Positions 1 to 31,438 of a DNA stretch of 33,509 nt are shown here, one piece after another. Each line of letters begins with the position of its first letter. The stretch's first letter is position 1. This DNA comes from a virus (taxonomy: Duplodnaviria > Heunggongvirae > Uroviricota > Caudoviricetes), in IMG/VR virus record IMGVR_UViG_2778261537_000013; one strand, given 5' to 3'. Under the pieces are notes generated by a model. The model was not told the DNA's origin, did no database searches, and worked only from the letters and a program-made list of their open reading frames with translations. The position numbers and the translations under genes were made by a program.

Positions 1-141
1 TTACTGCTTACACTGTAAGAACGCCGCAAACTCCGCTCCCCAGAAGCTCATCCGTATTTCGCACAGTGAACCGTGCAGCATCCAGATGATGAGGATTGCC
101 GTCACGCAGAACGTGATGGCCGTAAGCGATTTTTGCGACAT
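1..141 (-). CDS. Hok/Gef-family type I toxin-like small membrane protein (46 aa)
   Basis: Not in the ORF track (<60 aa). Hand translation of the minus strand from ATG 141..139 to TAA 3..1 gives MSQKSLTAITFCVTAILIIWMLHGSLCEIRMSFWGAEFAAFLQCKQ: an N-terminal hydrophobic helix followed by an LCEIR motif, as in Hok/Gef/RelF toxins. AAGGAG lies 8 nt upstream of the ATG. Confidence 0.5.
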   Translation of the reverse strand: MSQKSLTAITFCVTAILIIWMLHGSLCEIRMSFWGAEFAAFLQCKQ

Positions 142-271
142 AGCACTTGCTCCTTTTCTGGAGAGGCGCTAACCTTTCACTTGTCAAGGTAATGCGGTTA
201 GGGCCTCGGTTAAACAGGTATGTTTTCCGGGGCCTTTCCACATCTGGCCTTCGGGTATTCCCTCCGACCAT
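8..271 (-). CDS. Mok-like overlapping reading frame covering the hok-like gene (87 codons)
   Basis: ORF-track frame 8..271 starts upstream of the hok-like ATG, reads through it in another frame and stops just past it. This is the hok/mok translational-coupling architecture; the protein itself is not recognisable. Confidence 0.3.
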   Translation of the reverse strand: MVGGNTRRPDVERPRKTYLFNRGPNRITLTSERLAPLQKRSKCYVAKIAYGHHVLRDGNPHHLDAARFTVRNTDELLGSGVCGVLTV

Positions 272-331
272 CAGCCGAAAGGCACCCGCGCGTAATCTAT
301 CGCTTTTTTGTTACTCCGGCAATTCTGCCTG

Positions 332-592
332 TTAATTCTGAGGTAAAGGCAAGCTCATCTGATTGTTTCCCCTGTGTGAAGCTGGCAGCTCATGCCACGG
401 GATACCTTCTGAAGAGTGAACGCCGGAGGCGTGTTTCGATGTGAATTTATGGAAAGCTTCCAGTGTTGAGAAGCATACGCCGCATTCCAGGTTGTTACAC
501 TGGTAATACTTTTGCCGCACAGTGTTTGAATCATTTTCCGGACGACTGGTGCGGATGCGGGCAGATGCGCCACAAAGCGGACAACGGAACAT
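332..592 (-). CDS. ogr: Ogr/Delta-family zinc-finger late-gene transcriptional activator
   Basis: N-terminus MFRCPLCGASARIRTSRPENDSNTVRQKYYQCNNLECGVCF carries the Cys-X2-Cys...Cys-X4-Cys spacing and RTSR motif of P2 Ogr. It is co-directional with D, as in P2. The 86-aa ORF is longer than the 72-aa P2 Ogr, so the C-terminal end is uncertain. Confidence 0.8.
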   Translation of the reverse strand: MFRCPLCGASARIRTSRPENDSNTVRQKYYQCNNLECGVCFSTLEAFHKFTSKHASGVHSSEGIPWHELPASHRGNNQMSLPLPQN

Positions 593-768
593 AGCGACCT
601 CCCTAACGTGGTGCTGCCGCTATTCTAAGTTGTATAAGTTGAGATTCCAACTAACAGCCTGCTTTGAACGATGTTATGATGCATATCTGTGTATTAGTGC
701 ACGGTAGAAACTGTGGTTATCAATTAAAACAAGCAGAAATTATTCTTTCATCTGGAAATGGATAAAAA

Positions 769-1593
769 ATGACTGACTTTAAATATCAATCTGATAGTTA
801 TGATAGACAATCACAAAAATTTGTTATTCCGCTCTACATACGAAATGAACTAGGCGATTATAATTATTCATCGACTGGAACGTTTATATATTACAAGCAA
901 TCACACTATGTGGTTTTTGCTGCTCATGCTCTGAGGGATAAAGATGACATCAGAAATATTTACATACTGGGTTCTGATGGTGAATTTTTTGCTTTGACTA
1001 GTATCTCTATAGGACATCGAATTTTTGAAGAAGATGATTTAGTCATTGTCGATTGCTTTAATATGATACTTGATGGGAAAAATTATTTCTCGCTTAAAGA
1101 TAATTTCAATTTTATTGGATTTGATAAGAAACATTTTGCATGGACAGGCTTCCCTAAAAACTGGTGCAAAACACAAACAATTCACAGAACAAAACGCCCT
1201 AGTTCAATAGTAAATCAAACGGTAGCTTCTAACGAAGATGGCCTGTTTTTTAAAAATGCCAAGTATTTCACTATAATATCCGAGGTTAAAACATTCAATA
1301 AAATTGAAATAACAGGAACATACAAGGTTAAGAATATAGATTTAAAATATAAAGGACAGGTAAGTAAAGGCCCTTCTCCAGAGGGAATGAGTGGTGGTGC
1401 AATGTATTTTTTCTCTAAGGGGCAAGAATTAAAAAAAGAACTGGAGTCAACATTTCTTTTGGCTGGAATTGGTTTGTCTTTTAAAAAAGATGGAACAATA
1501 GTGGGAATTAGCCGTTATCGTATGATTGAGCTATTTGAACAGTTTAATGAAGAATCACCTATAGAGTGTTCTCTTCATTTTCAACAAGAATAA
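769..1593 (+). CDS. Cytoplasmic trypsin/chymotrypsin-fold serine protease-like protein (AT-rich cargo)
   Basis: 274-aa ORF with no N-terminal signal peptide. Candidate catalytic triad in canonical order: His in VVFAAHAL, Asp in DDLVIVD, Ser in GPSPEGMSGGAMYF (GDSGG-like). Strongly AT-rich compared with flanking phage genes, on the opposite strand to ogr and D, with its own terminator. Confidence 0.6.
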   Translation: MTDFKYQSDSYDRQSQKFVIPLYIRNELGDYNYSSTGTFIYYKQSHYVVFAAHALRDKDDIRNIYILGSDGEFFALTSISIGHRIFEEDDLVIVDCFNMILDGKNYFSLKDNFNFIGFDKKHFAWTGFPKNWCKTQTIHRTKRPSSIVNQTVASNEDGLFFKNAKYFTIISEVKTFNKIEITGTYKVKNIDLKYKGQVSKGPSPEGMSGGAMYFFSKGQELKKELESTFLLAGIGLSFKKDGTIVGISRYRMIELFEQFNEESPIECSLHFQQE

Positions 1594-1620
1594 TCCCTGT
1601 GCTCCAATTATACAAAATCA

Positions 1621-1649
1621 CAGCCTCTGTATGAGGCTGTTTTATTTTT
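1621..1649 (+). terminator. Intrinsic terminator downstream of the protease-like gene
   Basis: Hairpin cagcctc-tgtat-gaggctg (7-bp stem) followed directly by TTTTATTTTT. Confidence 0.6.
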
Positions 1650-1809
1650 AACCATTAATTCTTCAATGTGCATAAGCACTATTTAAATGAGCCAAGAAGA
1701 ATATGCTACTAGCTAACAACTCACTATTTAGCATAGAGCCAATTGTTAGATTAAAATCTGGAGATAAGTGTGCCAGCTTGAGTCTGGGTCAATACGTCTA
1801 AATTACTCA

Positions 1810-2916
1810 CTATGTTTCTGCTATCCATTCCGGGATTTTTGCTTCAAGCTCAAGCTGTGTGGTAAAGCCGCTGTTATCAATGGTGTGCTCGGCTTTTGCA
1901 ATAATCCAGTCCTGATTATCAATCTCGCTTTTAAATCCTGTTACCGTGCCATGCATTTCGGGGTAGAGTTCTGCGCGTCCACGTGCCAGTGTGATGGAGA
2001 ATGATGCGGCTCCGCGTTGTAGCTGCTGCCACTTTGCCGCCGCTGCGCGTCTTGCTGCCTGCTCGTTCTGATAAGTCTTGCGTAACACAAACACATTGCC
2101 TTCCGCGCCTTCCATATAATCACCTTCACGGCTGCTGCTTTTCTCCTTTTTGGGTTTTGGCGGTTTGCGGCGTTTCACGCTGACTTTTTTCTTTTTCCCG
2201 TAATTAAGATCAAGCCAGTAAGCGCGTACCCCCGTATACGCTTCGCGGTCAGCAATGCGGAACTGATGGCGATCGCCGCTGCTGCGTGTAATGGCGAACG
2301 AGGGCAACGGCTGGCCCTGCGCGTTCACACCACCACCTGGCATGATGAATAACAGATTGCCGCTTTTTACCGTGGTGATTGCGCCCAGCATTTCCGCCAT
2401 GCGCGTAAGGAAGGACATGTCGCTTTCTTCGGTCTGGTCGGCGTGGTCGATTTCGATATCCATCAGCATTTCGCTGATTTGCGGTTTCAGACCGTACCGA
2501 TGAGCGATGGCGGATACCACACGCTCAACGGTAACATCATGCCAGGACACCTCACGTTTAACGTTAAATTCATCCCGAAAATCTGCGCTTCTGGCTGAAA
2601 CAGTCAGCCTGTCCGGCGGTCCTTCGTGAGCGATTTCATCAACAATGTAAGTGCCTTTTTCTGTCAGCGGTTCTCCTTTCCAGCCAATGAGAACCGTCAG
2701 GCGCGCGCCCCGTGGCGGTAGCTGCAACTGACCATCCGCATCATCCAGCGTGATGGTGAGCTGGTCCGCCTCAAATCCCCGGTTGTCGGTCAGTGACAGG
2801 CTCATCAGGCGCTCTGCCACGCCTGACAACGTTTTACCCTCCGCGAGAATATCAAAATCCGGCATTTTCACGGGGTCTGTGCCCTGACTGAGCAATTGCA
2901 TGGTGGTGTCGGTCAT
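1810..2916 (-). CDS. D: Tail protein gpD (late control gene D family)
   Basis: Protein from MTDTTMQLLSQGTDPV onward matches P2 gpD motifs (LTDNRGFEADQL, GPPDRLT, SARSADF, REVSWHD, SFLTRMAE, GVRAYWLDL). Start set at ATG 2916..2914, preceded by GGGAGGG; the ORF-track frame is open further upstream to 3048. Confidence 0.9.
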   Translation of the reverse strand: MTDTTMQLLSQGTDPVKMPDFDILAEGKTLSGVAERLMSLSLTDNRGFEADQLTITLDDADGQLQLPPRGARLTVLIGWKGEPLTEKGTYIVDEIAHEGPPDRLTVSARSADFRDEFNVKREVSWHDVTVERVVSAIAHRYGLKPQISEMLMDIEIDHADQTEESDMSFLTRMAEMLGAITTVKSGNLLFIMPGGGVNAQGQPLPSFAITRSSGDRHQFRIADREAYTGVRAYWLDLNYGKKKKVSVKRRKPPKPKKEKSSSREGDYMEGAEGNVFVLRKTYQNEQAARRAAAAKWQQLQRGAASFSITLARGRAELYPEMHGTVTGFKSEIDNQDWIIAKAEHTIDNSGFTTQLELEAKIPEWIAET

Positions 2917-3073
2917 TTGTTCCCTCCCTGTGCGGCATGGTCGCATGTGCGTGTGGAGGGGGTTACTGCTTTTTGTTGTCGTCGAATCGGGAGAACGGCG
3001 CAGGGGTGAGATTACGCGCGTGGTGGGTGATGATTGTTGCCGAATCATTTAACGGATACAAGGGGCTGAAGCT

Positions 3074-4258
3074 ATGAGTGAAACTCGTTTTCATGGTGCC
3101 CGTGTTACGGAAAGTACCGACCTGGTAACAGCGATTAATGATGTTGATTCCAGTGTTATCGGTATCGTGGCAACGGCGGATGATGCGGACGCGGAGCTGT
3201 TCCCGCTGAACAAGCCCACACTGCTGACCCGCGTCAATGACGTGCTGGGAAAATGCGGGACAACGGGGACGCTTTATCGTGCGCTTAAGGCTATCGCAGA
3301 CCAGGTGAGCACAAAGGTGATCGTCGTTCGCGTGGCTGAACACAAAGAAGAAGACGGAAAGACACAGGATCAACTGGTTATCGGTGGTTCTGAATCTGAC
3401 GGCAGCTATACGGGGATGTATGCGCTGCTTGTTGCAGAGCAGGATGAAAGCATCGGATACCGTCCGCGTATTCTGGCTGCGCCGGAGCTGGACACGGAGG
3501 CGGTAACAAAATCCCTGTGCGTGATTGCGGGTAAACTGCGCGCGTTTGTGTATGCCTCATGTCACGGCTGTAACACGATGGCTGAGGTGATTACCTACCG
3601 CCAGAAATTCAACGAACGTGAGGTGATGCTCTTATGGCCGGACTTCATCGCCTACAACCCGAAAAGTGGTAAAAACGAAACGTTCCCCGCGCCTGCCTAT
3701 GCGTGCGGCCTTCGTGCGTACATTGACCATGAGCAGGGATGGCACAAATCACTGTCCAACGTTCCGGTTAAAAATGTGCTGGGGATGTCGAGGCATGTTT
3801 TCTGGTCGTTGCAGGCCGAAGACAGTGATGCCAACAGCCTTAACAACAAAGAAATCACGACCATTATTCGTCGCAACGGGTTCCGCTTCTGGGGCAACCG
3901 CACACCGGAAACGAACGCCTACATCTTTGAGGTGTATACCCGAACCGCACAGGTGCTGGCTGATTCAATTGCGGAAGCGCAGTTTGAAACCATCGACAGT
4001 CCACTGACACCTGCGAACGTGAAGGATGTTATCAGTGCCATCAGGGCAAAACTGGATTCACTGGTTACTGCCGGGAGACTGATTGGCGCGGAGTGCTGGT
4101 ATGACGTGGTGGATAACAGCACCACGGATTTACGTCAGGGGCGTGTGCGTATTCGCTACAAATATACGCCCGTTCCGCCACTGGAAGACATGGAGCTTTA
4201 CCAGACGTTTACTGATGAATACTTTGAACCCGCATTTGCGGCGCTGGGAGGTGCCTGA
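3074..4258 (+). CDS. FI: Contractile tail sheath protein gpFI
   Basis: 394 aa with P2 FI-like motifs (FPLNKP, GKLRAF, WPDF, HEQGWHKSLSNV, IRRNGFRFWGNRT, YTRTAQV, YTPVPPLE). Confidence 0.92.
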   Translation: MSETRFHGARVTESTDLVTAINDVDSSVIGIVATADDADAELFPLNKPTLLTRVNDVLGKCGTTGTLYRALKAIADQVSTKVIVVRVAEHKEEDGKTQDQLVIGGSESDGSYTGMYALLVAEQDESIGYRPRILAAPELDTEAVTKSLCVIAGKLRAFVYASCHGCNTMAEVITYRQKFNEREVMLLWPDFIAYNPKSGKNETFPAPAYACGLRAYIDHEQGWHKSLSNVPVKNVLGMSRHVFWSLQAEDSDANSLNNKEITTIIRRNGFRFWGNRTPETNAYIFEVYTRTAQVLADSIAEAQFETIDSPLTPANVKDVISAIRAKLDSLVTAGRLIGAECWYDVVDNSTTDLRQGRVRIRYKYTPVPPLEDMELYQTFTDEYFEPAFAALGGA

Positions 4259-4770
4259 TGGCTGTGCCAAAACATCTTCGCTTTTTTACGCTGTTTGTGG
4301 ATGGTGAAAACGAAGTGGGTAAGGTGACGTCCGTCACTCTGCCTAAGCTGACGCGCAAAACCGACAGCTACCGGGGGGGCGGCATGATGGGTGCGGTAAG
4401 TATTGATCTCGGTCTGGACGACTCCGCGCTTGATGCGAGCTTTGTCATGGGGGGCGCAGTTCGTGAGCTGTTCCTTAAGTATGGCGGCACGATTGACGGC
4501 ACGCTGCTGCGTTTTGCGGGTGAATACTACACCGATGCAGAAAGCGACCTGTATGAAGTCGAAATGCGCGGACGTGTGACGGAAATTGATATGGGGGAGG
4601 CCAAACAGGGCGAAGCCACATCACACACTTACGCCATTAAAAACACCTACTACAAGCTGAGTGTTAACGATCGCCCGTTGTGGGAGATTGACCTGCTGAA
4701 CTTCATTTACCGGAAGGACGGCAAGGACATTGTGCCCGATCGCATCCGTTCCGCGCTTGGGCTTGGCTGA
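4258..4770 (+). CDS. FII: Tail tube protein gpFII
   Basis: 170 aa immediately after FI with an overlapping stop/start; P2 FII-like sequence and size. Confidence 0.9.
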   Translation: MAVPKHLRFFTLFVDGENEVGKVTSVTLPKLTRKTDSYRGGGMMGAVSIDLGLDDSALDASFVMGGAVRELFLKYGGTIDGTLLRFAGEYYTDAESDLYEVEMRGRVTEIDMGEAKQGEATSHTYAIKNTYYKLSVNDRPLWEIDLLNFIYRKDGKDIVPDRIRSALGLG

Positions 4771-4824
4771 TAAGTAATATGCAGGCGGCGCAGTGCGTCG
4801 CCTCTGACTGCAAGGAGTTTCCTG

Positions 4825-5190
4825 ATGAAAGAGACGAAAAACATCGATACCGAAAACACGGTAGTTGCTGACACGGTGAAAGAAACCAGTGAGCGTGGCG
4901 TAAAACTTACCCAACCAATTGAGCGAGGCGGCGAAAAAATCACGTATGTGGAGATCACCGGGGCTATTGAGCAGGCTGGATCTCTGCGAGATTTGTCGCT
5001 GTCTGATGTGCTGAATCTGAAAGCGGAATCCATGTTTACGCTGCTGTCACGCGTGACATCACCGCGACTGGATGAAGTGACGATCAAAAAAATGGCATCC
5101 CGTGACTTTATTCAGTTATGTGTGGTTGCCGTAAATTTTTTGAGCGGTGCGGACTCTGGCGGGAAGAACGAACAGGCGACGGAAGCCTGA
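4825..5190 (+). CDS. E: Tail assembly chaperone gpE (zero-frame product)
   Basis: 121-aa ORF between tube and tape-measure genes, with a T-run slippery site near its 3' end. Confidence 0.85.
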   Translation: MKETKNIDTENTVVADTVKETSERGVKLTQPIERGGEKITYVEITGAIEQAGSLRDLSLSDVLNLKAESMFTLLSRVTSPRLDEVTIKKMASRDFIQLCVVAVNFLSGADSGGKNEQATEA

Positions 5191-5354
5191 TCACGGTTGT
5201 GTGCTTTGAGCACATAGAAGACTTTGTGGCAGATATTGCCGTTATTTTTAACTGGTCGCCCGCCGAAATCTTCATGATGACGCCCGGCGAAGTGGTTAGC
5301 TGGCGTGAGCGGGCGGCACTTCGCAGCGGGAATGCAGATAATGAAGACTCTTGA
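4825..5354 (+). CDS. E': gpE+E' extended tail assembly chaperone made by a programmed -1 frameshift
   Basis: The -1 frame (ORF track 5118..5354) is open across the 3' end of E. Slipping at AAT TTT TTG yields ...NFF ERCGLWREERTGDGSLITVV..., matching the downstream ORF, which ends where T begins. Confidence 0.7.
5136..5142 (+). other. Candidate -1 frameshift slippery heptamer (TTTTTTG) of the E/E' pair
   Basis: T6G run located inside the E/E' frame overlap; the same arrangement is described for P2 E/E'. Confidence 0.65.
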
Positions 5355-8148
5355 TATCCGGGTCGCTTTCAGCGCCGTTGACAGGCTGACCCGGCCTGCC
5401 GAAAACGCCCGCCGCCTGATGGGGCAGTTTGGTGACTCCATCCAGCGAACGCAGGGGGCGATCAAAAATCTCGAGCGTCAGGCGCGTTCATTTGAGCGCG
5501 CCCGCGACGCTGTCAGTAAAGCGGATGCTGGCATATTGAAAGCACGACGCCAGCTTAACGCCCTTAATCAGTTACAACGCACGGGTACAGTGCTCAGCGA
5601 AAAACAACAAAAGCTGATGCAGCAGTTAAGCACCCGGCTTGAACGCCTGAATGAATCGCGCACACGGGAAATTCAGAAAATGCGGGAGCTTGGCGGAGAG
5701 CTGAAACGCCACGGCATTTCCCTGACAGGCAGCGATAACACCATCCAGCAGGCCATCAGACGCACCGAACAGTACAACAACCAGCTTGAACGCGAACGGC
5801 AGGCGCTTGCGCGTGTAACACGGGCGCGTGAGCGGTATTCGCGCGCGCAGGAAACAGCGGGAAAACTGAAAACAGGTGGTGCGCTGGCAATTGGTGCGGC
5901 AGCGGCGGGCGGCTATGCTGCCGGGCGTTTTTTGCAGCCTGCGATCGGGTTCGGCAAAGAGATGTCCCGCGTTCAGGCACTGACGCGAATCGACAAAAAC
6001 AGCCCGCAGTTTAAGGCGCTGCGTGAGCAGGCGTTAAAACTTGGCTCTGAAACACAGTTTACTGCGAGTGATGCCGCCAGTGGGCAGAGCTTTCTGGCAA
6101 TGGCTGGTTTTACTCCGCAGGCCATTCAGGCCGCATTGCCCGGTGTTCTTAATATGGCGCTGGCAGGTGGCGTCGAACTCGGCGAGACGGCTGATATAGG
6201 CTCCAATATCCTCACACAGTTCAACCTGACAGCCGATCAAATGGACCGGGTGGGCGATACGCTGACAGCAGCATTCACCCGGACCAATACTGATTTACGC
6301 GCGCTGGGCGAAACCATGAAGTATACCGGTCCGGTTGCCGCAAAACTTGGTATCAGTCTTGAAGAAGCGGCGGCCATGGCCGGGATGCTTGCCAATAATG
6401 GTCTTCGCGGAAGCGATGCTGGCACGGCCATGCGCGCAAGTCTGTCCCGCCTTGCATCACCGCCAAAAGCTGCGGCTGATGCGCTGAAAGAGCTGGGGGT
6501 GTCAGTTGCTGACGCCAGAGGCAAAATGCGCCCGATGGAGGATGTGCTGCTTGATCTCTATAAGGCGACACAAAAATACGGACAGGTGGACCAGGTTTCC
6601 TTCTTCAAGGACATCGCCGGAGAAGAGGCGTTTGTTGGTTTACAGACGCTTGTTGCAGCGGCTGGTTCAGGAGAGCTGCAAAAACTGACCAGAGAATTGC
6701 AGGGGGCAAGGGGAGAGGCCGATCGCGTTGCAAAAGTAATGGCCGATAATCTTGATGGTGACCTGAAAAATCTCGACAGCGCATGGGAAGGTCTTCGTAT
6801 TCGCATCAGTGATCTGGTTGACGGTCCGCTGCGTTCTGTCACGCAGTGGCTCACGCGGGTACTTGAAAAAATCACCTCGCTGGCGCAGGCCCATCCGGTA
6901 CTGACGCGCCAGCTACTGATAGCAGGCGGTGCGTTGCTGGCAATGACTGCAACGATTGGCTCGTTGTCACTGGTTATTGGGGTGCTTTACGGGAAGCTGG
7001 CCACCCTGCGTCTTGGTTTCGAAATTCTTACCCGGTCAATGAATGTTGTCAGAGTGTTGCCTGCGTTATGGGGAATGGTGACGGGGTCCGTTTCTTTACT
7101 GGGAGGCGCTATCGGGGCGTTGTTCAGTCCGGTCGGTCTTATCGTGGCTGCGCTTGCCGGAGCTGCCGTTCTCATCTGGAAATACTGGGATCCCATCAGG
7201 GCATTTTTTGCCGGGGTGTTCAGCGGGATTATGGAAAGGCTGACCCCGTTGCGCGAAACCTTTGAACGGTTTGGCCCTGTTTTTGACGCAATCGGAAGCG
7301 GGATCAGCCAGGTGTTTAACTGGTTTAAATCGCTGTTGTCACCGATGGAGTCCAGCAAGGAAACGCTGGATAAATGTACCAGTGCTGGCGAGATATTCGG
7401 TAACGTTCTTGGTGGCGCGCTACAGCTTGTTCTGACGCCTGCAAAAATGTTGCTGGATACGCTGGCGTGGATACTTGAAAAACTCGGTGTGCTTCCGGAT
7501 GAAGCGGAAAGGGCGAGAAAGAAAATCGAAGACGCACAGCGTGCGGCCATTCTTCAGGACAAGGTTGCTCTGTTTCAGGGAGACATTGCGAAAATCAATC
7601 CGCCGAAGTCTGCGGAAAATGGCAATGGCACCGGAGGCGATAAACCCAAAGACAACAAACCGCTCACAGACAGCAATACCGGCACGTTACGCAGACTCAG
7701 CAAAATTGCTGATAACACAGGTAAGCTGGTTGATGAGACGAAAAAACGCATTGGCCCCGGCGATATTGTCTTTAAGAACCTGCCCCGCGCACTTGCTGTT
7801 CGTGGGGAGTGGCAGGAGCGGAAGATTGCACAGGTCAGTAAGCCTGCCCCCGCAATTAATATCACCCCCGTGGTCCCGGCTCCGCTGCCTCCGGCGCTGG
7901 TCCCTGTTGTTGCGGCCAGCTCCCGCCCGGTGGCGGAGGCCATACGATCTCCAGTGGCATCAGTTCCTGTAACTTCCCGTAACCGGGAGCCTGTTGCCTC
8001 CGGATTTGGTGGTGAAATTCATGTTCATCTGCATAACGTTGTTACGCAGAATCCCCGCGAACTGGCGAAACTGGTCGGTGAAATGGTCAGGGCAGAATTG
8101 GAACGACGCGACCGTGCCGGACGTGGCAGTTTTTACGATAAAGATTGA
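5341..8148 (+). CDS. T: Tail tape measure protein gpT
   Basis: About 936 aa with an N-terminal coiled-coil region, a central alanine/glycine-rich segment and hydrophobic stretches, in the position after E/E'. Start chosen at ATG 5341 (MKTLDIR); in-frame alternatives at 5305 and 5332 cannot be excluded. Confidence 0.85.
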   Translation: MKTLDIRVAFSAVDRLTRPAENARRLMGQFGDSIQRTQGAIKNLERQARSFERARDAVSKADAGILKARRQLNALNQLQRTGTVLSEKQQKLMQQLSTRLERLNESRTREIQKMRELGGELKRHGISLTGSDNTIQQAIRRTEQYNNQLERERQALARVTRARERYSRAQETAGKLKTGGALAIGAAAAGGYAAGRFLQPAIGFGKEMSRVQALTRIDKNSPQFKALREQALKLGSETQFTASDAASGQSFLAMAGFTPQAIQAALPGVLNMALAGGVELGETADIGSNILTQFNLTADQMDRVGDTLTAAFTRTNTDLRALGETMKYTGPVAAKLGISLEEAAAMAGMLANNGLRGSDAGTAMRASLSRLASPPKAAADALKELGVSVADARGKMRPMEDVLLDLYKATQKYGQVDQVSFFKDIAGEEAFVGLQTLVAAAGSGELQKLTRELQGARGEADRVAKVMADNLDGDLKNLDSAWEGLRIRISDLVDGPLRSVTQWLTRVLEKITSLAQAHPVLTRQLLIAGGALLAMTATIGSLSLVIGVLYGKLATLRLGFEILTRSMNVVRVLPALWGMVTGSVSLLGGAIGALFSPVGLIVAALAGAAVLIWKYWDPIRAFFAGVFSGIMERLTPLRETFERFGPVFDAIGSGISQVFNWFKSLLSPMESSKETLDKCTSAGEIFGNVLGGALQLVLTPAKMLLDTLAWILEKLGVLPDEAERARKKIEDAQRAAILQDKVALFQGDIAKINPPKSAENGNGTGGDKPKDNKPLTDSNTGTLRRLSKIADNTGKLVDETKKRIGPGDIVFKNLPRALAVRGEWQERKIAQVSKPAPAINITPVVPAPLPPALVPVVAASSRPVAEAIRSPVASVPVTSRNREPVASGFGGEIHVHLHNVVTQNPRELAKLVGEMVRAELERRDRAGRGSFYDKD

Positions 8149-8154
8149 GGAGTC

Positions 8155-8649
8155 ATGGCCATGATGATGATCTACGGCATGTTTGTTTTTGAGTTGCGCA
8201 CGTTGCCGCATCAGCAGTTACAGCAAAACAAAAGCTGGCGACATGTGAAAAATGAACGCGTTAACCGTTCGGCAAGCTGGCAGTATATCGGTGCAGGTGA
8301 TGATCGCATCGTTCTTTCGGGTGTTCTTTATCCTGAGATTACAGGTGGCGAAGTGTCGCTGTCGTTGTTGACCACGCAGGCATATACAGGACGCCCCTGG
8401 CCTCTGATTGATGGCGTCGGGCAGATTTACGGCATGTATGTCCTGACCGGAACGAATACGACCCGCTCCGAGTTTGATCGCTACGGTAAGGCGAAAAAGA
8501 TAGAATTTTCACTGACTCTTGAACGCTGTGATGAGGATTTGCGGGAGCGCCTGCAATCCTCATCGTTCAGCGATATGTTGTCCGGCTTCAAAGATAAGGT
8601 GACATCATCCCTTAACAGCGCGGCCAGTTCAGTTAAGGGGCTGCTCTGA
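8155..8649 (+). CDS. U: Tail protein gpU
   Basis: 164 aa; MMMIYGMFVFELRTLP...SWRH...ITLSGVLYPEITGG...WPLIDG resembles the P2 gpU family; lies directly after T. Confidence 0.88.
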   Translation: MAMMMIYGMFVFELRTLPHQQLQQNKSWRHVKNERVNRSASWQYIGAGDDRIVLSGVLYPEITGGEVSLSLLTTQAYTGRPWPLIDGVGQIYGMYVLTGTNTTRSEFDRYGKAKKIEFSLTLERCDEDLRERLQSSSFSDMLSGFKDKVTSSLNSAASSVKGLL

Positions 8650-8659
8650 TTTAACGTAT

Positions 8660-8702
8660 GTCGCCAGTTTCCTGATGAAGGTGACTGGCGACTTGCTGTT
8701 GT
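8660..8702 (+). terminator. Candidate intrinsic terminator after U
   Basis: 9-bp inverted repeat gtcgccagt / actggcgac with a 15-nt loop, followed by a T-rich tract (ttgctgttgt). Confidence 0.45.
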
Positions 8703-8805
8703 ATGTCCTTCTCAGAAAATTGTTTTTGAATAACAAATAACAGGATTTTATAATCTCTTAACCTTATAACATGTGTGGTCTGAAATAATAATTAAGGAGA
8801 TTATC

Positions 8806-9378
8806 GTGCTGTCTTACTTAATGGCAATTCACTTTGTTTTATTTGGGAACTCTACTAATTTAAAAAACTTCTGGAAATATGAAGTAATTCGGCGGAAACG
8901 TATGGATATCTGGAGGCTTTTAAGAGAGAAAAAACAGCGTAACCGGAATTTCCTTTTCTGGTGGCGGTTGGCTAACGAAATGTATATTAATGGTAATAAA
9001 TCACATAAGAAAGCAGCCAAAAAGTTAAACAGTAAAATAATTAACAAATTTGGTTGCGAAATTGGATTGGGCGCAAATATTGGAAAAGGGTTAACAATTC
9101 CCCATCATGCTGGAATTGTTGTTCATTTTGCTGTTGATGCTGGTGAAAATCTGGTGTTACGACAGAATACGACCATTGGACAGATAGATGGTGACATACC
9201 TGGTTCAAGAGTAAAAATTGGTAGCAACGTTGATATCGGAGCTAATTGTTGCATCATTGGATTATCACGTAAAATTGGGGATAATGTAAAAATAGGTGCA
9301 ATGTCTTTTATAAATAAAGATATACCATCGAACTGCACATATATAACTAAAAAGAGCGGTGTTGTATTGTATAAATAG
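8806..9378 (+). CDS. Hexapeptide-repeat (left-handed beta-helix) acetyltransferase, CysE/WcaB/NodL-like (AT-rich cargo at the Z/fun position)
   Basis: C-terminal half is built of hexapeptide repeats (IGANIGKGLTI, IGSNVDIGANCCIIG, IGDNVKIGAMSFI). GTG start at 8806 is preceded by AAGGAGA; the ORF-track frame opens at 8773. Visibly AT-rich; lies between U and G on the strand opposite to G. Confidence 0.65.
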   Translation: MLSYLMAIHFVLFGNSTNLKNFWKYEVIRRKRMDIWRLLREKKQRNRNFLFWWRLANEMYINGNKSHKKAAKKLNSKIINKFGCEIGLGANIGKGLTIPHHAGIVVHFAVDAGENLVLRQNTTIGQIDGDIPGSRVKIGSNVDIGANCCIIGLSRKIGDNVKIGAMSFINKDIPSNCTYITKKSGVVLYK

Positions 9379-9387
9379 AGTACATAA

Positions 9388-9424
9388 AGCCATCGATACT
9401 TCTATCGATGGCTTTTTCTTTTTA
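9388..9424 (+). terminator. Strong intrinsic terminator between the acetyltransferase gene and the 3' end of G
   Basis: 11-bp perfect stem agccatcgata / tatcgatggct with a cttc loop, followed by TTTTTCTTTTT. Confidence 0.75.
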
Positions 9425-10000
9425 TTGTGGGGCGACTGGCCACTCAATATCTGCTGCTACTGTTGTATCAACACGATTCAACAATACTCGATATGTCTTC
9501 CATGCTGCCAGTAACGATGCCTCTTCCTCCGTCGCAATATCCAAATCTATAGCATCCTGAAGTGGTGCAATATGCTCACTGGCTACCTGCATCAGGCTGT
9601 TTTTTGTTTCTTCCGCCTCCCTTATCCGAAATAGTTTTTCTGCTTCTGCATCTTTCACCCAGGATGTGCCGTTCCACTTCTGATACTCTCCATACGGCGA
9701 CAACCAGGTAACATTTTCCGGTAACGGACCGAGTTCAGAAATAAATAACGAGTCCCCTGATGCCACGTCATAAACCGTTTTACCCCGATGGTCTTCCACG
9801 AGATGCCACGATGCCTCATCACTGTTGAAAACGGCCACGAAGCCAGCCGGAATATCTGGCGGGGCAATATCGGTACTGTTTGCAGGCAGACCTGTATGAG
9901 GTGGAATGTATGCATCACCTTCACCAATAAACTCATTGGTTCCGGTCAGTAGATTATAAATTTTTATGGTCCGTGATTGTTCACTCATTCTGAATGTCAT
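9422..10000 (-). CDS. G: Tail fiber assembly protein (gpG-like)
   Basis: 192 aa directly downstream of the tail fiber gene with an overlapping stop/start; size and position match P2 G. Confidence 0.8.
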
Positions 10001-12132
10001 TATGCAAGCCTCACAATATAGTTAAATGCGATGTTTTTTACGGTGTTTTCTGCGTTCCCCGTAGCATTAACGGTGATGGTGTGTCCGTGGGGACCAATAA
10101 TGACAGAATGGGCATGAGCACCAATGCCGATAGTGTGGTTATGGGCACCGATATATACATTGTGAGCATGCCCTCCTGCGCTCGACGTGGTACCAGTACC
10201 TAACGCAGCGTTATAACCGGCTGATACACCATTCCCCGCGCCAGTGTGACCAACAGGTATATTGTGTGAATGAGCTCCTGCGCTATTTGTGGTTTTTGTG
10301 CCGTAATCAAATGAACTGGTCGTTTTAGTACCGTAATCAAACGACGATGTGGTTTTCGTCCCCAAATCAGTACTGGATGCGCTGGCGCTGTGGGTGTGCG
10401 ATTTAATGCCGTCCTGTTCCTGAGACAATACGGCACGACCACTGGCAGGTTTGCCCTTGATAGTCCAGCCACGCATATCAGGGATCACGCCTGACGGATA
10501 AGCGACTGCAAGTTTCGGGTATGCAGATTTGTCAAAAGTCTGCCCCTGCATCAGGGTATAACCAGACGGAACGGTATCTGATGGCCACGGAATCGGTGCA
10601 CCGACTGGATAAAACTCTTCAGGAGGATGAGCCGAGGTGTAAAGCTGCGCCCACGGCGACCAGTTTGCGTCGGTCGTATCCCGTCGTGAACGAATAAATG
10701 CCGGAGCATGAGCACCGCTTATACCACTCCAGCCGATGAGTAATTCGCCTTCGCCAACGGCTGTCATCCCTTTCAGGTGAATGATATTTCCATACGCTGT
10801 TGGATATCCGTTGTTATACGCCTCGTATAACTCCAGACCTGTGGCCCCCTGCATATTATCTGTCAGGGCGGTCACCCGACCTTTTGAAGCCAGATTAACT
10901 GACGATACTGCTGTCCCATCTGACGGTAACGCCCCGATCTCTGATGCTGTTGGCTTATTCCTGGAGTTATAGTCCCTTCGCCAGCCAGGAGCATAAGCAT
11001 CACCATGATTAATATAAGTAAATTGAGCATTAGGGATGCCTTCACCGCTGGATGTACTCGGTGTGGTAATGCGTATGGTCATTGCGCCGCGGGTGCCAAT
11101 AACTTCCACAACAGCACCTGCAAGACAAATATTTCCGCAACCTGTATCTGTAATGACCTTATTACTTGCATAAGCCCATGAGCCTTTGCACATCCAGTAA
11201 GGATGGTTAAATGCCCCCTGACTCTCTAGCCAAAAAATCAACTGCGCAGTTGTCCATGCTTCACTATCTCCACCAATATTCAGCTCTGCACTATATGCAC
11301 GGCAGGCACCGATATTTTTCGTAAAGGTGTCTTTGTCAGAGATATCCTCACCATTCTTAGCTTTCTGCAGACGTTTTTCAGCATTGTCATAGGCAGCTTT
11401 TACTGCATTTGATGTTGCCGCCAGCGTTTCAGACGTGCTGTTGGTTGCACTGCTGAGCTGGACTATCCCTTTTTGTGCCGTAGTGGCGTCCTGAGCGGTA
11501 TATTTTCCGTTAGCCATGTCATACGCTGCCTTAACCGCTTTCGGCGTTGCAGCCAGCGTTTCAGAATCGCTGTTAGTGGCGCTACTGAGTTGAACAAAGC
11601 CTTTTGCGGTCAGCGAGGCGTCCGGGTGACGTCGTGACTGTTCATGTTCTTTCAGTTTGTCATTCACGTAATCCACTGTGGCCATAACCATGGTGTTATC
11701 CACGGTAAGCGCCACGGTGGCAGTGCTGGATACGGTCAGAATGGTGCGAAATGTTTGTGCACGTCCGGATCCTTCGGCAACGGTTGGCTTGTAACTTTCG
11801 GCAGTATTGCCCACCGCGATCAAATCGCCGTGCTCATCAAATACACCAATTTCCCGGATCCAGAATCCGCCCGTTTCAGGAGGAATAACCAGCTCCGCAA
11901 TAATGCGGTTCTGATGTGTTGCGTCCAGGATGACGCGATTAACAGTATGTCGCCACACCTCATGCACCAGACGGGTCTGCTTACTGTCTGGTGTGGGCAA
12001 CGTGCCGCCACCGTCGCCCACGGCCATGTGAGTCAGGCGGACAGGATTACCATCTGGCGCGGCTGCCTGAGCTAATTTTTTGGCACCAGTATCAGTGATA
12101 ATGGTTTTAAATTTTCGTGTTGTGGTACTCAT
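10000..12132 (-). CDS. H: Tail fiber protein gpH
   Basis: 710 aa; N-terminus [23 protein letters not shown]... is P2 H-like. Internal duplicated motif ([23 protein letters not shown] twice) and a C-terminal tip with [10 protein letters not shown] tandem repeats and His-X-His repeats. Confidence 0.88.
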
Positions 12133-24331: not shown

Positions 24332-24640
24332 TTATTCGGGAAATAACGCCCGGATATTCCCGGCCATCTGGCTGGTTATCTGTGTGGTTGGTACTGGTTG
24401 TGGCGCGTTCTGTTCTACTCTGTTTTGTACCACGGCCAACTCATCGTCAGCCCATGCAGCCAGTCGGTAAGCCTCTGCCGGATTCATTTTCAGAAGTGCC
24501 AGCCCGGCCAGAAAAGCCACGCGTTGGCCGCTTTTGCGGGCTTCTGGTGTAAGGCTGTCCAGCCAGGCGCATGCTTCGCCTTCGTTCTTGACGGCGGCGG
24601 GCTTCAGATAGAAACTTATCCGTCTGGTTGGTGTCGTCAT
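24332..24640 (-). CDS. parR: ParR-like partition adaptor (centromere-binding protein)
   Basis: 102 aa from ATG 24640 (preceded by AAGGAG, 5 nt after the parM stop). RRISFYLKPAAV...LDSLTPEARKSGQRVAFLAGLAL...NIRALFPE parallels recalled plasmid R1 ParR (RRTIAFKLNPDV...LDSIP.GERS...ALTAGLAL...LRSLFP). Confidence 0.65.
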   Translation of the reverse strand: MTTPTRRISFYLKPAAVKNEGEACAWLDSLTPEARKSGQRVAFLAGLALLKMNPAEAYRLAAWADDELAVVQNRVEQNAPQPVPTTQITSQMAGNIRALFPE

Positions 24641-24644
24641 TGGT

Positions 24645-25604
24645 TTACTCCTTGTCCATTGCGTACAGCCCATTAACCAGAGCAAACTGTGGCACCCCGT
24701 CCGCGATGAAAGTCGCATTAACTCCGCAGGCTTCGCGGATAGCGGGTGCCACAATCTCCGCCCCTCCACCGACAACCATCACCCGCCCGTAACCCGAAAA
24801 AACCGCCAGCGCGCGGATCACGCGTTGTTTCAGTGTTTCTTCCTTTTCACGAATAACCGCCATCAGGCTGGCGTAATGCGCGTCATTGTGGATGTGCTGG
24901 CGCAGCCAGGCTTCATCATGGCGATGTTCGATAATGGTATTGGCGATGTGGTGACTGGTGCGCATACCGTTAGTGGCCATCACCGACAGTACGGCATCGG
25001 CCATCAGAGAAACGCCTACGTGTGGATCGCAAAACACCTGGCTGATACCTGCCAGTTGCCCCTGAACCTTTGCCACATCCAGCGTGGTTCCGCCCAAATC
25101 CACAATCAGCAGGGATTCAAACGGACTCATGTCAGCCAGTGCCTTAAAGCCAGCCGGAATGGATTCAGGCATAACCCGCACGTTACGGATAGTGAATGCT
25201 TCGCCGTTCTGGTACTCCACCGGGCGCATAACGTTCGCTTTTTTGCGGTTGATGTTGGCCATGTCCGGCTGTGCGTTTGTGTCGAAATACTCGCTCAGTG
25301 GCAGGGTGACAACCACATCCACCTCCTGTGGCGTGATGCCTGATTTGACCAGCGCGTGATGAATGGCAATGACATTCACATCGCTGTATTGGTATTGCGT
25401 GTCGGTTGTCTGGACAAAGCGATCGCTGACCGGATCAAAACCATAGCGCACGCCATCAAGCATGTAGTTCGCGGGCTGCATGCCACCGAACGGCGCAGAC
25501 CATTCCGACTTGAAGCTGTTCGGGCTGATGGCGTTGCGGCGTTCGCCGTTCTCAGTCCATGCCAGCTTGATGTTGGTGGAGCCGTCGTCGATACAAATTT
25601 TCAT
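24645..25604 (-). CDS. parM: ParM/StbA-family actin-like segregation ATPase
   Basis: 319 aa with ParM hallmark motifs in order: MKICIDDGSTNIKLAW, SPNSF, YSDVNVIAIHHAL, VMPESIPAG, LIVDLGGTTLD, GVSL, VMVVGGGAEI, LVNGLY. Confidence 0.85.
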   Translation of the reverse strand: MKICIDDGSTNIKLAWTENGERRNAISPNSFKSEWSAPFGGMQPANYMLDGVRYGFDPVSDRFVQTTDTQYQYSDVNVIAIHHALVKSGITPQEVDVVVTLPLSEYFDTNAQPDMANINRKKANVMRPVEYQNGEAFTIRNVRVMPESIPAGFKALADMSPFESLLIVDLGGTTLDVAKVQGQLAGISQVFCDPHVGVSLMADAVLSVMATNGMRTSHHIANTIIEHRHDEAWLRQHIHNDAHYASLMAVIREKEETLKQRVIRALAVFSGYGRVMVVGGGAEIVAPAIREACGVNATFIADGVPQFALVNGLYAMDKE

Positions 25605-30286: not shown

Positions 30287-30703
30287 CTATGCGTTAAATA
30301 CGGCACGTTGCGCGTCATCAATGAATACAGCTTGAGAGCGTTCTATCAGGCGGAGATTTGTCAGAAGCTCTGACTCTTTTGTGTGGTAAGGCGTTATCAG
30401 GTATTTGCCGTGCAGTTCGGCAATAATGGTGTATTGCGTCATTATTGCCGAACCAAGAATGTAAATGCGGCGTCCAATGCTGGACGGATTCATGGCTGCA
30501 ACTGTTGACTGTGTTTTAAGAGTGTCGATTTCTTTGCCCTGTTCCTCAATAATTTTGGCTGCGTCAGCGGTGATTTTTGCAATGGTCAGTGCGTGAAGTG
30601 CTGCCATATGTTGGCTACGCTTCACGGCATCTTTAGCCATTTCATCTTCCGCTTCTGATATTTTTTTTAATGTGTCGATAATGCCTTCTTCTTTTGCTTT
30701 CAT
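30287..30703 (-). CDS. Hypothetical protein (138 aa), AT-rich
   Basis: Intact ORF with predicted helical, lysine/glutamate-rich N-terminus; lower GC than its neighbours. Confidence 0.5.
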   Translation of the reverse strand: MKAKEEGIIDTLKKISEAEDEMAKDAVKRSQHMAALHALTIAKITADAAKIIEEQGKEIDTLKTQSTVAAMNPSSIGRRIYILGSAIMTQYTIIAELHGKYLITPYHTKESELLTNLRLIERSQAVFIDDAQRAVFNA

Positions 30704-30795
30704 TTTATATCTCCGTTATTTACGCGTGCGAATACCTCCATTAATACGGATGGTTTTCACGTTTTCTTATTTAATTTGATGTTTTATTTGTATCG

Positions 30796-30909
30796 TTATT
30801 CATCAGAGAAAAAACGCTCGATCTTTTTCACTGAATTAATAATTCGCATAATCCCAATGGCGCAGACCACCGAAATAATCAGAACAAGCCATGAGATAAA
30901 TATACTCAT
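30796..30909 (-). CDS. Small hydrophobic peptide (37 aa), translationally coupled to the upstream gene
   Basis: Not in the ORF track. Hand translation gives MSIFISWLVLIISVVCAIGIMRIINSVKKIERFFSDE, one transmembrane helix plus a charged tail; its ATG overlaps the upstream stop as ATGA. Confidence 0.35.
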   Translation of the reverse strand: MSIFISWLVLIISVVCAIGIMRIINSVKKIERFFSDE

Positions 30910-31151
30910 GCGATATTCCCCAGCTTATACGGTTCAATATGTTCCCCGCATTCTGCGGCACAGATCAGCTCGGAAAGTTCGTTTAGTGCATCCAGATCAT
31001 CAGCGTAAAAAGCCACGTCATACAGACTCCGGATTGCCCTGGTCAATGAGTCACGGGCTGCACGTTCAGCATGAGCGCCTGATGCGCTTAAGCGAAAATA
31101 AAAACGCTCAAGTGCTTTGTTAATGAGAGTTTTATATTCTTTGCCCATCAC
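30906..31151 (-). CDS. Hypothetical early protein (81 aa)
   Basis: Intact ORF in the early operon. Confidence 0.45.
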   Translation of the reverse strand: MMGKEYKTLINKALERFYFRLSASGAHAERAARDSLTRAIRSLYDVAFYADDLDALNELSELICAAECGEHIEPYKLGNIA

Positions 31152-31159
31152 AACGCCCT

Positions 31160-31438
31160 TTAATCTGCTTTCTTAATTTCAGCTTCTGAATCCATACAAA
31201 TAATTTCGATATAAGGTTCATCGCCATTAGCCTGGCGCGCTTTTTCAGCTTCGCTAATGGCTTCGCGAACGGTCTGGTACGGAAGCTCCACGATCAGTTG
31301 TGCGTTGTTCGCATAAACGTGAGTAACTGCTTTTTTTTCTGCCTGGGCTACAGCATCAATAGCTGATGCACGTAATAACAGTTCACCGCGAAAATCAATA
31401 AAACGGATAAATACACCTTGTGCATACTCTTTGGTCAT
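31160..31438 (-). CDS. Hypothetical early protein (92 aa)
   Basis: Intact ORF in the early operon. Confidence 0.45.
   Translation of the reverse strand: MTKEYAQGVFIRFIDFRGELLLRASAIDAVAQAEKKAVTHVYANNAQLIVELPYQTVREAISEAEKARQANGDEPYIEIICMDSEAEIKKAD

Follow-up and report, generated by a model that had tools for sequence, protein, structure and literature searches.

A standalone trypsin-like protease gene in a variable D–ogr site of a P2-like prophage: a candidate one-gene anti-phage cassette

The 33,509-nt stretch of viral DNA analysed here (IMG/VR record IMGVR_UViG_2778261537_000013, Caudoviricetes; referred to as the window and numbered from its first letter, position 1) starts at the end of a P2-like prophage. 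Between the late-gene activator gene ogr and the tail gene D it carries, on the opposite strand, the gene for a small trypsin-like serine protease. This gene is a self-contained one-gene cargo cassette in a variable and previously unnamed site, D–ogr, of a P2-like prophage of the P88/Xuanwuvirus type. On balance, we lean towards the view that the protease is a single-gene anti-phage weapon of the lysogen, acting by exclusion or abortive infection. That prophage hotspots carry one-gene effectors is already established; new are the occurrence of a defence-type protease domain on its own, the uncurated family to which it belongs and a hotspot unnamed in the relevant papers.

The protease and its family

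The protease gene (769–1593, plus strand, stop codon included) encodes 274 residues and contains the motifs FAAHAL, DLVIVD and GMSGGA in the His–Asp–Ser order of the chymotrypsin fold, as an initial annotation made from the sequence alone had pointed out. The putative catalytic residues are His53 (codon at 925–927), Asp90 (1036–1038) and the nucleophile Ser208 (1390–1392; all on the plus strand). Their conservation was checked in 35 close-family sequences (30–79% identity to the window protein) and in 83 of 196 relatives (13–51% identity), the latter set also being used for the Pfam and PADLOC comparisons described below. His53 is invariant in both sets (35/35 and 83/83). Position 90 is Asp in 35/35 and in 82/83 sequences, with Glu in the remaining one; the nearby Asp95 is not conserved among the 83 relatives. 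Ser208 (83/83) and Gly209 are invariant, and Gly206 is found in 82 of the 83. There are 27 invariant positions in the 35 sequences, among them His53, Asp90 and the stretch Gly-Met-Ser208-Gly-Gly.

An AlphaFold2 model computed from the family alignment had a mean predicted local distance difference test score (pLDDT) of 91 and a predicted template modelling score (pTM) of 0.89. In this model His53 lies in a short helical turn after strand 45–51, Asp90 directly before strand 91–95 and Ser208 in the loop preceding strand 211–216, a placement relative to the predicted strands which is the canonical PA-clan topology. Structure-based searching of the PDB with Foldseek revealed urokinase, thrombin, factor XI, DegS, Esp and chymotrypsin-fold proteases generally, with E-values of about 1e-7, bearing out the fold suspected initially; in a viral structure library, RNA-virus 3C-like and astrovirus-like proteases were matched. 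As modelled, the protein is a single-domain serine protease of the chymotrypsin fold (PA clan, S1-like), and it is predicted to be catalytically competent with His53, Asp90 and Ser208. The aligned protease core accounts for all but about 90 residues. Among these, the strongly conserved N-terminal block YQSDxYDRQSQRFVIPLY and an extra loop with an invariant KNYF are candidate regulatory or substrate-recognition elements, judging from their conservation.

The first 30 residues have a mean hydropathy of −0.97, with no sign of a signal peptide, and no membrane segment was found, the highest 19-residue hydropathy being 1.16. From the hydrophilic amino terminus and the lack of a membrane segment we conclude that the protease is cytoplasmic, in agreement with the initial annotation.

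The protein does not belong to any described system that we could identify, again as had been anticipated: no curated family or described defence system was matched, there being no hit in Pfam, NCBIfam or PADLOC. When all 35 close-family sequences were scanned against Pfam at E ≤ 10, scattered noise was obtained and no peptidase family appeared. PHROGs gave one marginal match (E = 0.004), to a family of unknown function, and the one match of a profile search of the PDB sequences (E = 0.36) was judged spurious. A word-indexed search of 5.8 billion proteins yielded 98 relatives, and 155 were obtained with the family profile; they come mostly from Gammaproteobacteria and Betaproteobacteria, those with a source name are nearly all called hypothetical, and none has a Pfam domain on record. 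The 196 relatives mentioned above were collected at E ≤ 1e-3 by an exhaustive hidden Markov model search of 1.84 billion cluster representatives, and nearly all are single-domain proteins of 250–300 residues. By tblastn, the gene was absent from 50,697 phage records and gave two weak matches among 72,556 plasmids. Of 185,579 species-representative genomes, only 11 contain it.

The relatives place the family in a wider superfamily. Trypsin_2 of Pfam is reached by 27 of the 83 and Trypsin by nine, so that not only the fold but also the sequence links the family to S1-type peptidases. With the PADLOC models, LmuA was matched by 30 of the 83, the retron type XI reverse transcriptase (RT)-protease by eight, PDC-S45 by six, PDC-M35A by four and HamA by two. 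Scanning of individual members revealed that the LmuA matches span about positions 4–174 of 425, the N-terminal effector part of that model, and that the RT-Protease_XI matches span about 330–463 of 510, which is the protease part only. Judged by these profile matches, the closest relatives of the family that can be recognised are the protease domains serving as effectors in Lamassu, retron XI and Hachiman-type systems, and the family itself is that domain alone.

One distant standalone relative (P0250, in the region 5587–9412 of a metagenome contig) matches both the LmuA and the retron XI protease models. It is located just upstream of, and on the same strand as, a 59-residue open reading frame (ORF), a PP2C phosphatase, a Ser/Thr kinase and a 386-residue protein, an arrangement that may represent a multi-gene system around the same type of protease. 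Used as a single-sequence query, P0250 retrieved nothing beyond itself.

The insert and the D–ogr site

In P2 itself, ogr directly follows D, as the initial annotation had stated; the two are separated by an 81-bp spacer containing the annotated ogr promoter. In the window, the entire ogr–D intergenic space extends from 593 to 1809. Alignment to sibling prophages with an empty site defines the true insert as 634–1805 (1,172 bp), matching the strongly AT-rich segment of about 1.2 kb noticed earlier. Its G+C content is 33.1%, compared with a mean of 53.4% (standard deviation 4.5%, minimum 39%) for all other stretches of 1,172 bp (z = −4.5); no other part of the window is as rich in A+T. The protease ORF is the sole credible coding sequence: the remaining small ORFs are unconvincing, so that no partner small ORF was found in the insert. 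A search of positions 1–3200 against Rfam detected only a sok RNA outside the insert and no RNA family inside it, and the predicted folding of the 217 nt downstream of the protease gene is no more stable than that of shuffled sequence (z = −1.07).

The insert contains its own candidate transcription signals. A consensus scan predicts a sigma-70 promoter for the protease gene at 651–680 (plus strand; 9 of 12 consensus positions), consisting of CTAACA, an 18-nt spacer and TATGAT, with a TG upstream of the −10 element. Downstream of the gene, the terminator that the initial annotation had reported is present, and it appears to work both ways (1620–1650, both strands): an 8-bp G+C-rich stem at 1620–1640 is followed by TTTATTTTT, T-runs occur on both strands and the minus strand also scores as a terminator. 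RNA folding gives the same hairpin. Such an element can end the protease mRNA and also stop read-through from D that would run antisense into the gene.

On the minus strand, the predicted ogr promoter was located by consensus scan at 622–650 (TTGGAA, 17-nt spacer, TAGAAT). Its −10 element lies in universally conserved DNA and aligns with the annotated ogr promoter region of P2. Its −35 element is within a boundary sequence found at occupied sites only and stands back to back with the candidate protease promoter. Of the six cargo alleles that we compared, five begin on the left with the motif ATTCCAAC, which read on the minus strand contains this TTGGAA; in the sixth the motif is degenerate. 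At empty sites the corresponding position is occupied by D coding sequence, in which no good −35 element was seen by inspection. Insertion of cargo thus appears to be accompanied by a replacement ogr promoter, and the left boundary probably provides ogr with an autonomous promoter once cargo and terminator part it from D, as far as sequence comparison can tell.

The initial annotation had proposed a comparison of related P2-like prophages, and this revealed that the site is indeed variable. In sibling prophages whose flanks are 94–98% identical, D and ogr are usually about 42 bp apart (empty site). Near-identical prophages differ at this site: it is empty in some, and in others one of nine cargo alleles, each a single gene, is present. 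In addition to the window protease, these encode a bSEFIR protein (PADLOC, 1.2e-43), a PIN_12 protein, a 340-residue protein with a weak match to the RiboL-PSP HEPN family, an alpha/beta-hydrolase, a 220-residue hypothetical protein, a YecA-family protein, a DUF3800 protein and a 385-residue hypothetical protein. Among the eight alleles other than the protease, bSEFIR is the sole recognised defence system; it has been validated as a single-gene defence (10.1101/2022.05.11.491447). The PIN, HEPN-like and DUF3800 alleles are defence-like only. A 130-bp probe across the left junction was used to count occupancy: 461 of 1,231 E. coli genomes with this type of ogr extend past the empty-site junction, so that about 37% of the sites are occupied and about 63% are empty. 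The protease allele was found in two of 5,426 complete E. coli genomes, the two copies being 99.3–99.6% identical over 1.8 kb.

Six cargo alleles were aligned at the sequence level to compare boundaries and repeats. The left boundary, or ‘adapter’ (634–669), is common to different cargo alleles and absent from empty sites, as seen in alignments and by BLAST. Different cargo alleles have a part of the right boundary (1771–1805) in common. An imperfect 9-bp direct repeat brackets every cargo allele compared. Its left copy in the window, TCTAAGTTG, is at 625–633 and its right copy, TCTAAATTA, at 1797–1805; in three other alleles the right copy reads TCTAAGTTG, and two have near-copies. Empty sites hold one copy of the repeat, and could arise by deletion between the direct repeats.

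The flanking core genes are ogr (332–592, minus strand; Pfam Ogr_Delta, 5e-14, and RefSeq annotation) and D (1810–2907, minus strand). For D, we adopted the RefSeq start in a 99.6%-identical genome; the longest ORF reaches to 3048, beyond that start at 2907. This genome is the chromosome of E. coli TUM1880, which is 99.6% identical over window positions 300–2100 and has the same genes adjoining ihfA. There, the protease ORF is annotated as hypothetical protein only (WP_000129162.1). The nearest phage records to the prophage are of the P88/Xuanwuvirus type, and the gene layout is also theirs. D is followed by FI, FII, E, T and U on the plus strand, and D and ogr are directed away from them (1810–8649), whereas in P2 itself D, ogr and FI to U are all co-linear. 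As a consequence of the inversion, D lies outside the FI–U transcription unit in this phage lineage.

Some other features of the prophage were recorded. Beside ogr, at the prophage end, an ORF of the Hok/Gef family (hok, 1–141, minus strand) and a match to sok RNA (128–287, minus strand; Rfam, E = 5e-9, 48 bits, which is below the Rfam gathering score of 59) make up a hok/sok type I toxin–antitoxin module, which is kept in all sibling prophages examined. The gpA–portal hotspot of the window prophage (24335–25604, minus strand) contains the plasmid-partition genes ParM/StbA (Pfam, 2.7e-82) and StbB (1.4e-23), and no recognisable defence system was detected among the ORFs scanned there. Partition genes are unexpected in an integrated P2-like prophage and hint at a phage-plasmid lifestyle or at plasmid-derived cargo. 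Between the tail gene U and the tail-fibre genes, a region of low G+C content (38–41%) carries a 201-residue ORF (8773–9378, plus strand) which weakly resembles hexapeptide transferases, at a score under the Pfam cut-off; this may be an acetyltransferase-type moron at the site equivalent to Z/fun. A further dip in G+C content (40%) is found at 30601–31200 in the early/regulatory region, near a 138-residue ORF (30287–30703, minus strand) which has no Pfam match.

Candidate role of the protease in the lysogen

Homologues of the gene reside in mobile elements of very different kinds. All-against-all BLAST of the neighbours in 13 loci with long flanks revealed the protease as the only common gene and no shared partner, which accords with the single-gene insertion first described. 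With the copies of Proteus (74%) and Pluralibacter (70%), the resemblance at the DNA level stops at the ORF. A mobile cassette wider than the ORF was rejected because this resemblance is lost about 37 bp upstream of the start, and these comparisons show that the gene travels alone. Pluralibacter has a P2/186-like prophage in which the gpA–portal interval, the canonical defence hotspot of P2 (PMC9122126; PMC13586616), contains a 66%-identical homologue and no other gene. In a siphovirus-type prophage of Proteus, the homologue occupies a moron site flanked by the tail-chaperone gene and the tape-measure gene. In Shewanella it is found in the early region of a lambdoid prophage, beside type I restriction-modification genes and with Abi_alpha a few kilobases away, and in Herminiimonas it has a TIR gene on one side and a type I restriction system on the other. 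Small integrative elements carry it in Pseudomonas syringae, Halomonas and Citrobacter koseri. The only apparent pseudogene in the 13 loci is the homologue of Terasakiispira papahanaumokuakeensis (9947–10818 of its locus), which is split into two ORFs.

Several lines of circumstantial evidence favour the role in defence that the initial annotation had thought plausible. The gene occurs at two independent P2-type hotspots, which argues by location, and a validated defence gene, bSEFIR, is an alternative allele at the D–ogr site. Homologues have defence-island neighbours in other genomes, the protein is related to defence-effector protease domains, and the transcription signals of the gene would make it independent of the late operon.

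Proteases are increasingly recognised as effectors of immunity in bacteria; those studied are all wired to a sensor or a pro-enzyme partner, and the question arises how one catalytic domain would tell an infected from a healthy cell. As the protein has no sensor domain, recognition at the level of the substrate would be the simplest mechanism. In the lysogen, the gene would be transcribed from its own candidate sigma-70 promoter, against the late genes and insulated by the two-way terminator. The uninfected cell would remain unharmed if the protease were narrow in specificity or latent. Upon infection by a foreign phage, a phage protein could be the substrate, or could, as a cofactor, license the protease to cleave a host protein that is essential. 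The second of these branches would follow the logic of Lit of the e14 element with a serine-protease catalytic centre, and either would block phage development. A more far-reaching version is that a sensor-less, single-domain protease is a complete antiviral system which reads infection via its active site, and that D–ogr is a dedicated dock for single-gene cassettes that supplies the −35 element of ogr; this we put forward tentatively, as a possibility to which we give clearly less weight.

If true, the protein would be either a ‘restriction protease’, cutting a phage protein without death of the host, or a Lit-like enzyme whose target is presented to it. It would stand for a new family of one-gene immune proteases hopping between hotspots of phages, conjugative elements and islands, and a protease acting alone at about 270 residues would be the smallest protease-based defence known. 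The family is small, highly conserved and unannotated, and a function found for one member would serve all of it. The D–ogr site is in any case a compact addition to the hotspots of P2-like phages, and provides a list of candidate one-gene effectors (PIN, HEPN-like, DUF3800, YecA-family and alpha/beta-hydrolase proteins).

Some observations weigh against a defence function. Most of the D–ogr cargo alleles are themselves uncharacterised. The proposed protease promoter is a mere 9-of-12 consensus match in AT-rich DNA. The protease matches no PADLOC, Pfam or NCBIfam model, so that its link to defence proteases is via distant relatives only. It has no recognisable sensor domain, and the studied trypsin-like defence proteases that we found are all sensor-fused or nuclease-paired (PMC12799240). 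Finally, two homologues are located in conjugative transfer operons (Aliarcobacter and Citrobacter freundii), one between TraC and TraU and one between TrbC and TraN, which is not a typical place for defence genes.

The last point leads to a different explanation, namely that the protease is a counter-defence or establishment factor, which cleaves immune or stress proteins of the host when the element enters or leaves and does not protect the host from other phages. Besides the two homologues inside transfer operons, which belong to integrative conjugative elements, there is the copy of Proteus, which runs in the same direction as the tail genes; moreover, defence genes are not the only cargo of variable sites on mobile elements, where anti-defence genes occur too. 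However, the window gene is directed opposite to the late operon behind a two-way terminator, an arrangement better suited to expression in the lysogen than upon entry or in the lytic cycle; the one recognised alternative allele at D–ogr is a defence gene, the closest recognisable protease domains are defence effectors, and a homologue occupies the gpA–portal defence hotspot. We therefore regard counter-defence as unlikely. It is quite unlikely that the protease is one half of a split system, acting on an unlinked partner such as a pro-nuclease and having no effect without it. The related trypsin-like domains of Hachiman, AVAST and Lamassu do cleave a proenzyme nuclease (PMC12799240; 10.1101/2025.09.03.673762), but no metallo-beta-lactamase-like (MBL-type) gene or other conserved gene is found beside the protease in the 13 loci. 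Moreover, the gene moves as a single ORF among unrelated mobile elements and bacterial classes, and dependence on an unlinked partner would therefore be hard to maintain.

The AT-rich morons of prophages often encode virulence or fitness factors, the hok/sok addiction module lies 200 bp beyond ogr and some cluster members come from E. coli O103:H2. The protease might, on these grounds, serve non-immune lysogenic conversion or addiction as an unconventionally secreted effector, a regulator of host physiology or a prophage-stabilising toxin. This we consider very unlikely, since the family is mostly found in environmental Gamma- and Betaproteobacteria (Halomonas, Shewanella, Microbulbifer, Herminiimonas), no antitoxin-like partner gene or RNA was found and there is no export signal. 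For the same reason, the spread of the family in environmental bacteria, an effector of a type III secretion system or another virulence function is unlikely. The gene could also be an inert passenger, a decaying or catalytically dead gene of the protease fold; it is rare, as the count in complete E. coli genomes shows, and the Terasakiispira homologue is broken. This is hardly credible for the window gene, whose ORF is intact. Across the 35 sequences, which come from several bacterial classes, neither the triad nor about 27 further positions vary; the copies in the two complete genomes are nearly identical (99.3–99.6%), and the expression signals, namely the candidate promoter and the two-way terminator, are preserved. 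An anti-phage protease of the lysogen is thus the reading that we prefer.

Comparison with known systems

The hotspots named for P2 are gpA–portal, Z/fun, tail–cI and sites near the integrase gene; D–ogr is not named in the three papers on P2 hotspots (PMC9122126; PMC13586616; 10.1101/2024.10.15.618418). Like the defence hotspots of P2-like phages (old/tin at gpA–portal, Z/fun and tail–cI), D–ogr is a variable site between conserved core genes, and its alternative AT-rich cargo, which includes known defence genes, is swapped between near-identical prophages. It differs in that about 63% of the sites are empty, while the main hotspots of P2 reportedly always contain cargo (PMC13586616), in that each of the nine cargo alleles found is a single gene, and in having conserved boundary sequences and a 9-bp direct repeat.

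Trypsin-like proteases studied in defence are each fused to a sensor and have as partner an MBL pro-nuclease or an SMC-like protein (structural maintenance of chromosomes; PMC12799240). In our literature search, no validated standalone trypsin-like defence protein was found. The protease domains of LmuA, of protease–HamA (HamMAB), of Avs2–trypsin and of retron type XI share with the window protein the PA-clan fold and the His/Asp/Ser triad, and like it they are cytoplasmic and located on mobile elements or in defence islands. These domains are, however, always fused to a sensor or scaffold (the C-terminal region of LmuA, HamA, a STAND NTPase and a reverse transcriptase, respectively), whereas the window protein is a protease alone. 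They are also usually partnered, with an MBL pro-nuclease or with LmuB/LmuC (PMC12799240), whereas the window gene has no conserved neighbour.

Membership of these systems was checked in each case. The window protein is not a Lamassu LmuA: it has no PADLOC match, its relatives match the N-terminal effector part only, and there is no adjacent lmuB (SMC-like) or lmuC, the insert being single-gene and no neighbour being kept across the 13 loci. It is not part of a trypsin–MBL pair (HamMAB or Avs2–trypsin–MBL), as the insert holds no neighbour, no MBL domain is present in the Pfam-annotated neighbourhoods and almost all relatives consist of one domain, whereas in such pairs the pro-nuclease gene lies immediately upstream and the protease is fused to a sensor. 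A retron type XI RT-protease was rejected because an RT domain is lacking and, with sok as the only Rfam match in positions 1–3200, no msr/msd was detected there. PDC-S45, a single-gene candidate of PADLOC, is not matched by the window protein or its close family; the six superfamily members (of 83) that match it do so weakly (best E = 2.9e-4). Standalone relatives may therefore already be among the unvalidated PADLOC candidates.

More remote proteases share the fold. Members of the HtrA/DegP group (S1C) were rejected in view of the hydrophilic amino terminus, the lack of a membrane segment and of a PDZ domain, and the fact that the protease fold takes up all 274 residues. HtrA/DegS/DegP and V8/Esp are exported, HtrA with PDZ, whereas the window protein has neither signal peptide nor PDZ; sequence identity to them is just 12–17%, and the window protein has about 90 additional residues, with the N-terminal block and the KNYF loop. 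The likeness to FAM111A, a human antiviral trypsin-like protease, is at the level of the fold only, as that protein is eukaryotic, multi-domain and targeted to replication forks.

A functional parallel is found outside the fold. Lit, encoded by the prophage e14, is a protease that causes abortive infection by cleaving EF-Tu in the presence of the Gol peptide of phage T4. Membership of the Lit type was rejected, since there is no HExxH/Peptidase_U49 match in Pfam and both fold and triad are those of a serine protease; Lit belongs to the zinc metalloproteases and has an unrelated fold, with no sequence or structural kinship, and the parallel is a mechanistic analogy only. Yet, like the window protein, it is a single-gene, prophage-encoded cytoplasmic protease without a separate sensor, and by this analogy Lit may be the best functional counterpart for sensing and response by a lone protease.

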